IMG/VR virus record: IMGVR_UViG_2563366911_000001
Direction: 5' to 3' (one strand)
Length of the DNA: 64,000 nucleotides
Source of the DNA: a virus
Taxonomy: Duplodnaviria; Heunggongvirae; Uroviricota; Caudoviricetes
Shown here one piece after another: positions 2,554 through 51,295 of this stretch (position 1 is the first letter of the stretch; each line of letters starts with the position of its first letter). Both the position numbers and the translations under genes were made by a program. The notes below the pieces were generated by a model, which was given only the letters and a program-made list of their open reading frames with translations, was not told the origin of the DNA and made no database searches.

Positions 2554-3006
2554 TCAGATACGTGCGGATGTGGCATTACCGTAATGACGGTGCTGACGGG
2601 CCACCTTATTGAAAAGTTGACGCGCCATTACCCAAGGCTGGTGCTCCCGGCGTTCCTTTTCGTCCTGCGTCATATAGAGTTCGTTCTGGAGTTTTTCATC
2701 AAACCGGCGCGGAGCGCGGCTACGGCGAAAGAATTCAGGATTCAGAGAGTGGATCTGAAATCTACGTGGGCGTGTACTGTCATCAATCAAAACAGACGAA
2801 TACTTAGACACAGCGATAGCCTTTAAGCGCAGATAAACATCGCGCTTATCGACATCCAGATGCGGGTATTCCTTTTCAAGAATTGCTGCGAGTTCTTTCG
2901 CTGATAGAAGAGATTTAGTGCGGATCATGTAATCCGCAATCTCGTACGATGTTATTCGTGAGTGATTTATTTCCATGAAGTGGCGTCCCTGCCAGTTAAG
3001 TAACAT
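2554..3006 (-). CDS. lpa: Lpa-like late promoter activator (assigned by position between a C1-type operator and pacA), 150 aa
   Basis: ORF with GGTGA Shine-Dalgarno; position and size match the P1 lpa slot; no motif recognised. Confidence 0.5.
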   Translation of the reverse strand: MLLNWQGRHFMEINHSRITSYEIADYMIRTKSLLSAKELAAILEKEYPHLDVDKRDVYLRLKAIAVSKYSSVLIDDSTRPRRFQIHSLNPEFFRRSRAPRRFDEKLQNELYMTQDEKERREHQPWVMARQLFNKVARQHRHYGNATSARI

Positions 3007-3077
3007 CCTGTCACCTACTGATTAGCCCATGTCAACTAATCAACGTGGAATATAATACCCTCGATTAAAGAAATAGC

Positions 3078-3096
3078 AATACATTAGAGCAATTTT
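3078..3096 (-). promoter_or_regulatory. C1-type operator-like site (ATTGCTCTAATGTATT) upstream of the lpa-like gene
   Basis: 13 of 17 match to the operator consensus; contains -35-like TTGCTC. Confidence 0.4.
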
Positions 3097-4138
3097 ATCT
3101 AACGCTCGACGAGTGACTTGTGATAGCGCCGACTCCAAGCGCGTAATCAAAGAACAATCGTTGATGCATCGCCAGCCTACCGTGCGTCTTCTCCCAATTA
3201 TCGCGGTCACGCTCAATATCACGCTGGCATGACTGGCACAGAGGAATTGCGTAAATGTCATGCGCGCATAATCGACTATGACGAACGATATAAGGCGTAA
3301 TGTGAGCGCCAGCTCCCGCCGCTCCACACCCACAGCATGGACGGGAAGCAACAAAGTCCATGTACTCAGGTAATTTTAGCGATTGCAGTTTTGGTATTTT
3401 GAAATGCGCCATGCCAGGGTCGGAGTCAACATCCACAGGGCATACTTTTTCACGCATCGGCGCGGCGCGTTCTTCCATCATCTGAACATATGCTGTAGCG
3501 CGATCGTCATACGGGCGAATATCCGCCTCTTTCAGAGGTCCGCTATCCTGCGTTGCGGCTTTCATCTTATTTATTGATATACGGCAAACTTCTTCCGGCA
3601 TCAGGTGCATCATGTTGCGCATGAAAGCCCACCAGCACAGTTCCTGAATACTTAAATCATGGCCATCTGAAAGCCCCATTTCCTGACGGGCGACATCCAG
3701 TATCCAGTTAACGCGATTATTATGCAGCGTTTCTTTCAGCTCATTAAAACCACGCATCCGGTAATGGTTATCGTGATGCCAGCACAACAACACCGCGCTA
3801 TTGTCTCGTTCTGCGTGGACAATATGGTTGTCACACCAGCTACGATCTGCGGCCTGGCATTGCCCCTCTTTCCTGCGCAACCACGCCACCAGCGCGTCAA
3901 TTCCACCAATACGGCGAAACAGTTCATCGCTGTTAAAAAACGGCTGCAACGCCTCATTTGTTGCCATAGTTTGCTCGGAAACAACGAGGCCGTCGTCCAT
4001 GTGCTCGATTAACTCACGCGGCACCGGCTCCATAATAAATTTACGGCCAGCCTCCACCAGCTTTCTGACTTCCTGATCCACTTTGAATGTGGCGACGCCA
4101 AGCTCTTTTTGTACAAAGGGAGTAATTACGGCTTTCAC
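3095..4138 (-). CDS. Hypothetical protein, 347 aa, Cys/His-rich C-terminus (possible Zn-binding or HNH-like)
   Basis: Long ORF; C-terminal CCGCG...H...C...C-x2-C cluster. Confidence 0.7.
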
Positions 4139-31915: not shown

Positions 31916-31941
31916 AAAAAAACGCCCACCCGAAGATGGGC
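31916..31941 (-). terminator. Strong intrinsic terminator/attenuator in the leader between the C1-controlled promoter and the tRNA genes
   Basis: GCCCATC-TTCG-GGTGGGC hairpin followed by T7 on the minus strand. Confidence 0.6.
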
Positions 31942-32089
31942 AAACTGGAAGCTCGTAACGCACTTCGGAGTTGCCACTTAGGCGCATGGTCAACCTGGCA
32001 ACTCGGTGGTTTGTCTGGGAGGACTAGGCCCAGCCATGCTTACCGCCGCGCCTGTCGCGGCTAACAGCTAAATCGCGCTATAAATCACG

Positions 32090-32135
32090 ATTCATTGAGG
32101 CGATATTACACTAATAAATTTATTAGAGCAATATA
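32090..32135 (-). promoter_or_regulatory. Overlapping palindromic C1-type operators with promoter TTGCTC-17-TAATAT for the tRNA/SPFH/ban operon
   Basis: ATTACACTAATAAATTT (plus) and ATTGCTCTAATAAATT (minus) overlap at 32105-32132. Confidence 0.6.
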
Positions 32136-47467: not shown

Positions 47468-47623
47468 TTACCTTTCAGATTCGTAGGCTGTGAAGACAGT
47501 GACCTCCGTCTGGCCGGTTCGGATTCGTACCTCGCAGAGGTCTTTCCTCGTTACCAGTGCCGTCACAATGACGGTTAAACAGATGACGATCAGAGCGATT
47601 AACATCGCTTTTTGCTGCTTCAT
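47468..47623 (-). CDS. hok: Hok/Gef-family type I toxin, 51 aa (not in ORF track)
   Basis: MKQQKAMLIALIVICLTVIVTALVTRKDLCEVRIRTGQTEVTVFTAYESER matches Hok family (LIVCLT...TRKSLCEIR...AYES). Confidence 0.8.
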   Translation of the reverse strand: MKQQKAMLIALIVICLTVIVTALVTRKDLCEVRIRTGQTEVTVFTAYESER

Positions 47624-47681
47624 AGCCTGCTTCTCCTTGACCTTTTGGTCGGTAAGAGGCTAATCTACGTATGCTAAGCAT
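47475..47681 (-). CDS. mok: Mok-like overlapping reading frame spanning hok
   Basis: Out-of-frame ORF starting upstream of hok and ending with it. Confidence 0.5.
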   Translation of the reverse strand: MLSIRRLASYRPKGQGEAGYEAAKSDVNRSDRHLFNRHCDGTGNEERPLRGTNPNRPDGGHCLHSLRI

Positions 47682-47730
47682 AGATATGGCCTCAGATTAA
47701 TGTTAAGCGTCTTGCAGGACGCGTAATGTT
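47640..47730 (+). ncRNA. sok: Candidate Sok-like antisense RNA (approximate bounds)
   Basis: Antisense to the mok start region; TTGACC-n18-TAATCT promoter-like element; hairpin GCGTCttgcaGGACGC. Confidence 0.3.
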
Positions 47731-47804
47731 ATCTGGGGCTTTCTTCTATCTGCTTTTCGGGTAATGCCTGAAGCAGATAGCCTCAAGCACCCGCAACGAT
47801 TGTA

Positions 47805-51204: not shown

Positions 51205-51295
51205 TTACGGCCTCGTAAGTTGATAAACAACCTGCGACCCGCTGCTAAACAGGTGGCAGGACGTGACGGGGTTAGCAGACTGGCACTTACGAAAC
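51205..51295 (-). ncRNA. c4: c4-like antisense regulatory RNA (approximate bounds)
   Basis: Two short stems TTCGTAAGT/ACTTACGAG and CTGCTAAC/GTTTAGCAG; copies of GTTTAGCAG and ACTTACG recur about 130 nt upstream. Confidence 0.45.

Follow-up and report, generated by a model that had tools for sequence, protein, structure and literature searches.

The window analysed here is a stretch of 64,000 nucleotides (nt) from the viral record IMGVR_UViG_2563366911_000001 (Caudoviricetes) that carries the ban locus of bacteriophage P1. Between the ban promoter (Pban), which is controlled by the C1 repressor, and the transfer RNA (tRNA) genes of the same operon lies a hairpin followed by a run of seven U residues, and this hairpin probably closes a C1-repressed RNA of about 181 nt transcribed from Pban. 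Such an RNA would be the counterpart of the 190-nt long form of DicF, the small RNA (sRNA) encoded in the Qin dicBF operon of Escherichia coli K-12, and the genes farther downstream would need read-through. As judged from its sequence, the leader is a mosaic of an RNA domain from the DicF locus and an sRNA-type 3' end. The homology appears to concern the conserved folded 5' domain of long DicF rather than DicF itself, which is new, as is the apparent distinctness of the P1 sRNA body from DicF.

Between positions 31300 and 32300 the window is 99.4-99.7% identical to the P1 genome NC_005856, the annotation of which was transferred by coordinate mapping. All features under discussion (operator, leader, terminator and downstream RNAs) are carried by the minus strand (Table 1). 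An earlier note, made from the same DNA by sequence inspection, had described a palindromic operator/promoter at 32105-32132 with TAATAT as the -10 element, and this coincides exactly with the annotated divalent C1 operator Obanab (formerly Op72ab) and the promoter P1ban. The stop codon of dmt (32125-32123) falls within the same operator. In the P1 record, Obanab together with P1ban and P2ban is annotated as controlling ban, the P7 record states that Op(ban) controls the tRNAs, and the annotators of both phages assign the tRNAs and ban to Oban. Because these genes are placed under Oban, any transcription of them from Pban must cross the terminator. Operator-constitutive bac mutants at Op72 presumably express ban in the lysogen. 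The position of the -10 element would place the start of the Pban transcript at about 32096.

On its make-up, the element at 31942-31916 is a canonical Rho-independent terminator, with a GC-rich stem-loop directly ahead of a U-tract of the length characteristic of this class (at least 5-7 residues). GCCCAUC (31941-31935) pairs with GGUGGGC (31930-31924) across a UUCG loop (31934-31931), and a single G precedes the seven T residues (31922-31916). Of the 7-8 base pairs (bp) of the stem, 4-5 are GC pairs, and the hairpin energy of -11.3 to -12.8 kcal/mol compares with -13.5 kcal/mol for the trpA terminator under the same folding. The hairpin folds autonomously in minimum-free-energy and centroid structures alike, and alignment shows it to be kept in P1, P7, E. 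albertii, E. fergusonii and D6-like relatives. Matches to a generic terminator pattern are about as frequent in the region as chance predicts (6 observed, 4.4 +/- 2.4 expected). Between Pban and position 24000 on the minus strand, however, the one at 31942-31916 has the best score, with the most stem pairs and G-C pairs, and it alone has an unbroken T7 run; it is the only canonical terminator in that range. Sequence, fold energy and conservation thus bear out the 7-bp stem, TTCG tetraloop and T7 run described in the earlier note. The terminator most likely forms the 3' end of a short RNA, and the description given there, a strong terminator between a repressor-controlled promoter and the tRNAs that ends a short leader RNA, is most likely correct. 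Two of the distances need amending: the terminator does lie downstream of the operator, with a separation of some 170 nt in the earlier account and about 181 nt when counted from the predicted start to the last residue of the T-run, and it does lie upstream of tRNA-Asn, not immediately but separated from it by 466 nt of conserved non-coding sequence (31915-31450). In itself the terminator is ordinary, and its setting is already recorded at the level of annotation, since the P1 GenBank record marks a 'dicF-like region' that ends at the 31916-31942 terminator.

The link to DicF lies in the first part of the leader. Positions 32060-31966 of the window are 76-78% identical to the sequence directly 5' of DicF in a lambdoid dic locus. 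In this locus (L003), the genuine DicF is located at 3122-3173 and the P1-similar part immediately upstream, at 3001-3097, while in the Qin prophage of K-12 (L136) the counterpart of the domain occupies 2257-2362, between ydfC and dicF (2383-2435). This unannotated counterpart corresponds to 1649256-1649361 of E. coli K-12 MG1655 and lies within the published 190-nt DicF species. DicF is known as a 53-nt species, the 5' end of which is generated by RNase E, and as a 190-nt species with a 5' end generated by RNase III, both from the dicBF operon of Qin (Faubladier et al. 1990; Ragunathan et al. 2023). Primer extension on this operon gave no sign of an internal promoter, and DicF has been reported to originate both from termination and from the processing of read-through transcripts. 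As the position of dicF in L136 sets the start of the 190-nt species near 2246, this species spans both elements and consists of the conserved domain followed by DicF.

A covariance model built from the domain alignment (R1) detects a single copy in the window (103.9 bits, E 2e-20). The domain is found in 43 lambdoid phage records, with 74-79% identity, and in at least 120 viral contigs. In every annotated case inspected, the gene order is repressor, domain, sRNA with terminator, and then dicB/kil or recombination/exonuclease genes, an arrangement that corresponds to the early-left operon. The terminator census was made by eye, and a regular-expression finder overlooked DicF-type stems. All loci read in this way have, no farther than about 70-110 nt from the domain, an sRNA-like hairpin and a run of five to seven U; the sRNA bodies or terminators 3' of the domain fall into at least seven unrelated kinds. 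Because each of these loci pairs the domain with a hairpin and U-run, and does so with at least seven different bodies, the domain can be regarded as a portable 5' module for operon-embedded sRNA-terminator units. At both the gathering and the E<=10 threshold, no Rfam family covers the 5' domain or the P1 sRNA body. A coding role via a MARR mini-open reading frame (mini-ORF) was considered and rejected; this mini-ORF is present in lambdoid copies and missing from P1.

The domain fold, obtained with RNAalifold and manual inspection, comprises four helices. On 20 distinct sequences, 98.6% of the cells in these helices are paired and four pairs show compensatory change; when control helices were slid by 1-3 columns, 31-57% were paired. 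The 19-nt loop of the P3 hairpin is almost invariant (GGUUGACCAURCGCYURAG). In a P1-like plasmid of E. fergusonii, P3 has two extra compensatory pairs and the first hairpin is missing. A pseudoknot GCAUGG/CCAUGC within the domain is unproven: one covarying pair favours the candidate GYAUGG/CCAURC(loop), and among five natural variants of the 5' strand one is wobble-compatible and four have uncompensated mismatches, in a sample biased by search patterns that fixed parts of the sequence.

The 3' part of the leader is a different matter. The sRNA body at 31969-31943 varies among P1-like elements and has no homology to DicF. The Rfam DicF model RF00039 gave no match at E<=10 (gathering score 48 bits) in the window between 31250 and 32250, and the genuine DicF of L003, as a positive control, scored 76.7 bits in the same search, by which the P1 RNA is ruled out as DicF proper. 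The predicted duplex of the P1 3' part with ftsZ (-60 to +30) has an energy no better than 29% of shuffles, in a test that does not discriminate, as the DicF control was likewise non-significant (12%). What P1 shares with the dicBF type of module is a homologous 5' domain upstream of a hairpin-terminator in a repressor-controlled operon.

If the hairpin ends a long-DicF-like RNA, C1-repressed transcription from Pban would yield a transcript ending at U7, with the first ~100 structured nt as the homologue of the DicF-preceding domain and the last ~55 nt as a P1-specific sRNA-type hairpin with U-tail. Transcripts leaving dmt, which has no terminator of its own, would probably stop at 31942-31916 as well. 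Polymerases halted at the terminator would give rise to the small RNA, possibly trimmed further by RNase E. Those passing it would transcribe a conserved RNA resembling transfer-messenger RNA (tmRNA; the element is called tmRNA-like RNA below), followed by tRNA-Asn and tRNA-Thr, tciABC, a third tRNA, ban and dbn.

Several points weigh against this proposal. The 5' and 3' ends of the P1 RNA are sequence predictions, and no P1 expression data were found for it. D6-like phage-plasmids retain this terminator without Pban and without the domain, and Erwinia and Rosenbergiella have an unrelated hairpin with a U-run at the same spot before the tmRNA-like RNA; the terminator may functionally belong to the downstream unit. 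The likeness to DicF is one of architecture and 5' domain only. Northern blots of K-12 revealed nothing longer than ydfABC-dicF and no read-through past DicF, indicating that read-through can be rare. Finally, the promoter scan was insensitive, missing Pban itself, and a promoter 3' of the terminator could escape it.

Possible, at a clearly lower probability, is that the 5' domain acts as a cis-acting RNA akin to put of phage HK022, making RNA polymerase terminator-resistant, so that the terminator is largely bypassed; this would complement the sRNA interpretation. put RNA suppresses termination in cis, dependent on the zinc-binding domain of the RNA polymerase β' subunit. Antitermination of this kind may fit the position of the domain, which lies, like put, in an early operon past the promoter and before terminators. 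In every case the domain precedes an intrinsic terminator placed within an operon, beyond which distal genes still have to be expressed, and in P1 it begins about 30 nt past the predicted start, comparable to putL just downstream of PL. An N-like gene would find no space in phage pPE4, where the interval from dicA to the domain has no annotated ORF on the same strand. The P3 loop is near-invariant across phages and the stems covary, as expected of a contact surface. The words GCGCGGCGG and ACCAUGCG are common to putL and the domain, but neither the order of these shared 8-9-mers nor their structural setting agrees between the two. Model R1, run with filters off over HK022 22000-31000, a region assumed to hold putR too and in which putL alone was located, reached at best 7 bits (E>5) and thus revealed no detectable homology of the domain to put. 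Further against a put-like role, D6-like phages carry the terminator without the domain, the K-12 Northern blots show no read-through transcript, and the terminator follows the domain at distances that range from 20 to 40 nt.

It is rather unlikely that the element is an ordinary operon-end terminator or insulator for uhr-hrdC-dmt (for pmgS in D6), with the downstream RNAs made from an unrecognised promoter 3' of it. Such a role would suit dmt, which lacks another terminator and has its stop codon inside Oban, and in D6 this terminator stands behind the late gene pmgS and a 750-nt spacer. In Pantoea eucrina, Vibrio phage pYD38-A and Klebsiella phage-plasmids, a good sigma-70 promoter for the tmRNA-like RNA occupies the position of the P1 terminator. 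According to a preprint on P1vir in a Δhfq host, dmt, hrdC and uhr are down while trnA, ban and dbn are up, and these opposite changes show that the dmt side and the ban side are regulated separately. An insulator is, however, at odds with the assignment of ban and the tRNAs to Oban/Pban by the P1 and P7 annotators, and with the presumed expression of ban in lysogens of bac mutants. The T-run is followed after only 2-3 nt by the 5' end of the tmRNA-like RNA, the next conserved RNA, which leaves no space for a promoter, and the insensitive scan found no promoter-like site in 31916-31450.

There is likewise only a slim chance that the hairpin and U-run mainly serve the downstream tmRNA-like RNA, by marking its 5' boundary, directing its processing or stability, or holding its expression at a low level, with the DicF-like link being secondary. 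The mosaic junction with D6-like elements lies exactly at the 5' edge of the hairpin, and Erwinia phyllosphaerae and two Rosenbergiella species have unrelated hairpins with U6-7 at 2-3 nt before the conserved GG(G/A)GUUUUCG start. A long hairpin directly adjoins this point in Cronobacter phage CS01, Klebsiella phage Menlow and Pantoea alvi. In several homologues, however, a promoter takes the place of the hairpin, which is thus not part of the functional downstream RNA; moreover, U7 after a GC-rich stem is most simply explained as a terminator. In Rosenbergiella epipactidis (L141, ~486-560), a good sigma-70 promoter (TTTACT-17-TATGAT) is followed by a ~45-nt leader, a terminator hairpin and then the tmRNA-like RNA; this layout of promoter, short RNA, terminator and tmRNA-like RNA equals that of P1, and the sequences are unrelated.

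A conditional attenuator or riboswitch, in which the leader would toggle between terminator and antiterminator and thereby gate the tRNAs and ban, is highly improbable. Riboswitches do typically consist of a structured RNA with a terminator behind it, and UGGGC (32032-32028) in the 5' strand of the variable hairpin could pair with GCCCA in the 5' strand of the terminator. This sole complementarity, however, is lost in P7 and the lambdoid homologues, which have other hairpin and terminator sequences, and no conserved mutually exclusive pairings were found. A non-conserved sRNA body separates the domain from the terminator, and at least seven unrelated terminators occur behind this one domain. 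The Rfam searches returned no riboswitch or leader family, and there is no conserved leader peptide, the MARR mini-ORF being absent from P1. Since the terminator folds alone, the pentamer is unconserved, the spacer is variable and the upstream sequence in D6-like elements is unrelated, the attenuator envisaged in the earlier note, which would call for a switchable structure, is unlikely. Its suggestion that the leader gates the downstream genes holds in so far as annotators put the tRNAs and ban under Oban, with the correction that the first product past the terminator is the tmRNA-like RNA and not the tRNAs.

This tmRNA-like RNA is conserved in P7, other P1-like plasmids, Klebsiella phage-plasmids and the genomes of Rosenbergiella, Erwinia, Pantoea and Rouxiella. 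A BLAST search recovered the region from 328 phage records, among them those of Drexlerviridae, Ackermannviridae, Schitoviridae, Chaseviridae and one Vibrio phage; it is widespread in P1-, D6- and SSU5-type phage-plasmids as well as in the Drexler-, Ackermann-, Schito- and Chaseviridae. In the records inspected, the region has either no annotation or overlapping 'hypothetical protein' calls, and no prior description of the RNA was found in the part of the literature that was searched. The point just before it is occupied by a hairpin with U-run in P1, Erwinia and Rosenbergiella, and by a sigma-70 promoter or a long hairpin in other genomes.

The resemblance to tmRNA is centred on the tag. In P1, the sequence UAAAU GCA AAC GAU GAU CUG AUG AUG GUA GCG GCC UAA combines an Ala resume codon, a conserved coding frame and an end in (A/V)A plus stop. 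Twelve different tags were recovered, five of them from BLAST and not from the tag pattern, and each has 10 codons, with GCC, GCT or GCG as last codon and TAA or TAG as stop. The variation in the last Ala codon is synonymous. Other tags are ANDDLMMAAA, ANDDVVLMAA, ANDDYKLAAA, ANDDLMLQAA, ANDDLMLAAA, ANDDLMLMAA, ANDNTFLAVA and ANEEMYLAVA; a Salmonella plasmid copy (L132) is the exception in having no tag stop codon. Tag hairpin and pseudoknot are 97.9% paired with eight compensatory pairs, all four pairs of the second stem covary, and the pseudoknot flanks the tag as in tmRNA. An AUG upstream of the tag was rejected as a coding start: although it is read in the tag frame in Rosenbergiella, a UAG intervenes in P1, the Erwinia copy is in another frame, and other groups lack it. 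The 5' end, GGGUUUUCG-UCAUGGUUAGCGAC, resembles the 5' strand and D-loop analogue of E. coli tmRNA.

Established tmRNA searches place the RNA below their thresholds. The tmRNA_permuted model (RF04321) scored 24.1 bits in P1 and 39.6 bits in a Klebsiella phage-plasmid (L002) against a threshold of 47, and RF00023 scored 14.9 bits on the tag region of L141, short of the Rfam tmRNA gathering score. ARAGORN did not call the RNA at default settings and did so only at -ps80, where the proposed tRNA domains were inconsistent between homologues. The search for a tRNA-like domain (acceptor stem with G3:U70, T-arm and 3' CCA) combined low-threshold ARAGORN runs with scans for a T-arm, for duplexes and, across the 64-kb window, for an acceptor 3' strand, and nothing consistent emerged; no T-arm, acceptor 3' strand or CCA partner was found near the RNA or anywhere in the window.

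In an E. coli IncY plasmid (CP122779; L133, ~1160-1225), a TnpB-family element has inserted in such a way that the tmRNA-like RNA begins abruptly at AAACTGACC; this copy, which has an internal deletion, is probably inactivated. In Klebsiella phage-plasmids, a tRNA-like sequence of ~150 nt, uncalled by ARAGORN, lies about 170 nt 3' of the tmRNA-like tag (L002 3253-3402; the match in L004 ends at about 3297-3326). It shows acceptor-type pairing GGGUGAU/GUCACUC, a T-arm GCGGG-UUCGAUU-CCCGC and a 3' UCCA (UCCC in L002).

Table 1. Features of the ban leader region and adjoining RNAs (window coordinates unless a locus is named)
Feature	Position	Strand	Basis
Divalent C1 operator Obanab (former Op72ab)	32132-32105	.	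NC_005856 annotation mapped to window, exact coincidence
P1ban promoter (overlaps Obanab)	-35 at 32131-32126, -10 TAATAT at 32108-32103	-	NC_005856 annotation
P2ban promoter (overlaps Obanab)	-10 at 32122-32117	-	NC_005856 annotation
Predicted 5' leader of Pban transcript, small hairpin AAUCGUGAU...CGCGAUU	32096-32066	-	fold of 32100-31914; predicted start from -10
Conserved structured ~100-nt RNA domain	32065-31962	-	covariance model R1, alignments, covariation
Domain hairpin P1	32061-32045	-	RNAalifold/manual
Domain helix P2, CGGU/ACCG, 4 bp, closes junction	32045-32042 with 32007-32004	-	RNAalifold/manual
Domain variable hairpin (sequence and length vary)	32033-32015	-	RNAalifold/manual
Domain hairpin P3, GUUGCCA/UGGCAAC, 7 bp	32002-31996 with 31976-31970	-	RNAalifold/manual
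P1-specific sRNA body: small hairpin GAAGU..GCUUC, then single-stranded CAGUUU	31969-31943	-	fold of 32100-31914, alignments
Intrinsic terminator, 7-8 bp stem + UUCG loop + G + U7	31942-31916	-	sequence, fold, conservation
Conserved tmRNA-like RNA, starting 2-3 nt past T-run	31913-31653	-	Rfam, homologues, covariation
tmRNA-like RNA, 5' region GGGUUUUCGUCAUGGUUAGCGAC, resume context UAAAU	within 31913-31653	-	sequence
Tag frame GCA..UAA = ANDDLMMVAA*, stop codon in hairpin	31854-31822	-	sequence
H-type pseudoknot, CGGGG/CCCCG + GUCG/CGAC	31807-31803 with 31791-31787; 31797-31794 with 31776-31773	-	covariation
Second pseudoknot-like element	3' of H-type pseudoknot	-	
Long hairpin CACAACAGG..CCUGUUGCG	31733-31653	-	sequence
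tmRNA-like RNA, other loci	L002 2992-3206; also L138-L145, L224-L228		
Non-coding stretch up to tRNA-Asn	31652-31450	-	conserved in P1-, P7-, D6-like elements (alignment)
tRNA-Asn, first annotated gene downstream	31449-31374	-	ARAGORN, Rfam
tRNA-Thr	31371-31296	-	ARAGORN, Rfam

Between the tmRNA-like RNA and tRNA-Asn (31652-31450), no long minus-strand ORF backed by conservation was found. Three long hairpins on the minus strand (~31733-31653, ~31305-31205 and ~31085-31010) share the base CACAACAGGUAAGGG...CCCUUACCGUUGUGAUGA, the second enclosing a T-arm-like GAGGGUUCGAAUCCCU, and in Pantoea, Rouxiella and Vibrio phage pYD38-A hairpins of this kind are found on the flanks of the tmRNA-like RNA. 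The P1 ORFs plp and upl (L001 4974-5543, i.e. ~31330-30760 of the window, plus strand) are antisense to tRNA-Thr and to this hairpin-rich stretch, with plp overlapping trnT, and may be spurious calls over RNA genes. In phage D6 (L137 1754-2500), a non-coding, hairpin-rich stretch of ~750 nt without Rfam match runs from pmgS to the shared terminator, in place of the Pban/DicF-like module. Sub-threshold matches to Rfam STnc100 (29-40 bits) were seen at L003 3171-3380, L137 3803-3923 and L141 1350-1437; they are located 3' of DicF in the lambdoid locus and also near the tRNA/tmRNA-like region of D6 and Rosenbergiella. Elsewhere in the window, on the minus strand at 47618-47792 and 51249-51454, Rfam matches above threshold were obtained for the sok antitoxin RNA (114.9 bits), C4 antisense RNA (70.8 bits) and the a1/b1 targets of C4 (56.2 bits); of these, C4 and its targets are known elements of P1 immI.

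Should the long-DicF-like reading be correct, the first product of the ban/tRNA operon would be a repressor-controlled small RNA of DicF architecture, and expression of the helicase and the tRNAs would depend on escape from a strong terminator. The 5' two-thirds of long DicF, that of K-12 included, is a conserved folded domain, a module that moves between lambdoid phages and P1 and is joined to many sRNA 3' ends. Antitermination, processing and stability are candidate functions of this domain and are directly testable. The tmRNA-like RNA constitutes an unannotated family across hundreds of phage genomes that merits separate follow-up; if it acts on trans-translation, it would represent a novel way in which phages interfere with ribosome rescue in the host. 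A more far-reaching proposal, improbable as it stands, is a two-RNA device hinged on the terminator, in which the domain would be a new protein-independent antiterminator RNA that licenses passage to an undescribed, tag-bearing and pseudoknotted phage RNA without tRNA-like domain, which would in turn interfere with or re-programme host ribosome rescue.

Among known systems, long DicF offers the closest parallel. Like the P1 RNA, it combines a repressor-controlled promoter, the ~100-nt domain, an sRNA hairpin with U-tail terminator inside the operon, and distal genes, and its length of 190 nt is set against ~181 nt predicted in P1. The sRNA body and terminator at the 3' end are unrelated in the two, and the P1 5' end would be that of the primary Pban transcript, whereas the 5' end of the DicF long form is an RNase III cut. 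The distal genes also differ, with dicB in the DicF operon and the tmRNA-like RNA, tRNAs and a DnaB-type helicase in P1. In mRNA-derived sRNAs, the Rho-independent terminator serves as Hfq-binding module, and the P1 RNA likewise has a 3' end with a GC stem and at least seven U. As in that class, it could also come from a 3' untranslated region, that of dmt, the mRNA of which would end here; unlike mRNA-derived sRNAs, it has a repressor-controlled promoter of its own, and genes of the same operon continue past the terminator.

The domain shares with put RNA a structured nascent form, a length of 70-100 nt and a place in a phage early operon ahead of terminators that have to be passed; it is near the promoter in P1 and, as with put, its carrier phages have no obvious N-like protein partner. 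It differs from put, a two-stem RNA of ~70 nt, in having no detectable sequence or structure homology, another helix topology and a single copy per genome. The RNA beyond the terminator, in turn, has in common with tmRNA (SsrA) the UAAAU-GCA resume context, a 10-codon tag AN(D/E)(D/E/N)....(A/V)A, a stop codon in a hairpin and H-type pseudoknots directly 3' of it. Unlike tmRNA, it has a core of ~165-260 nt in which a tRNA-like domain was not found, and it is carried by many unrelated phage families.

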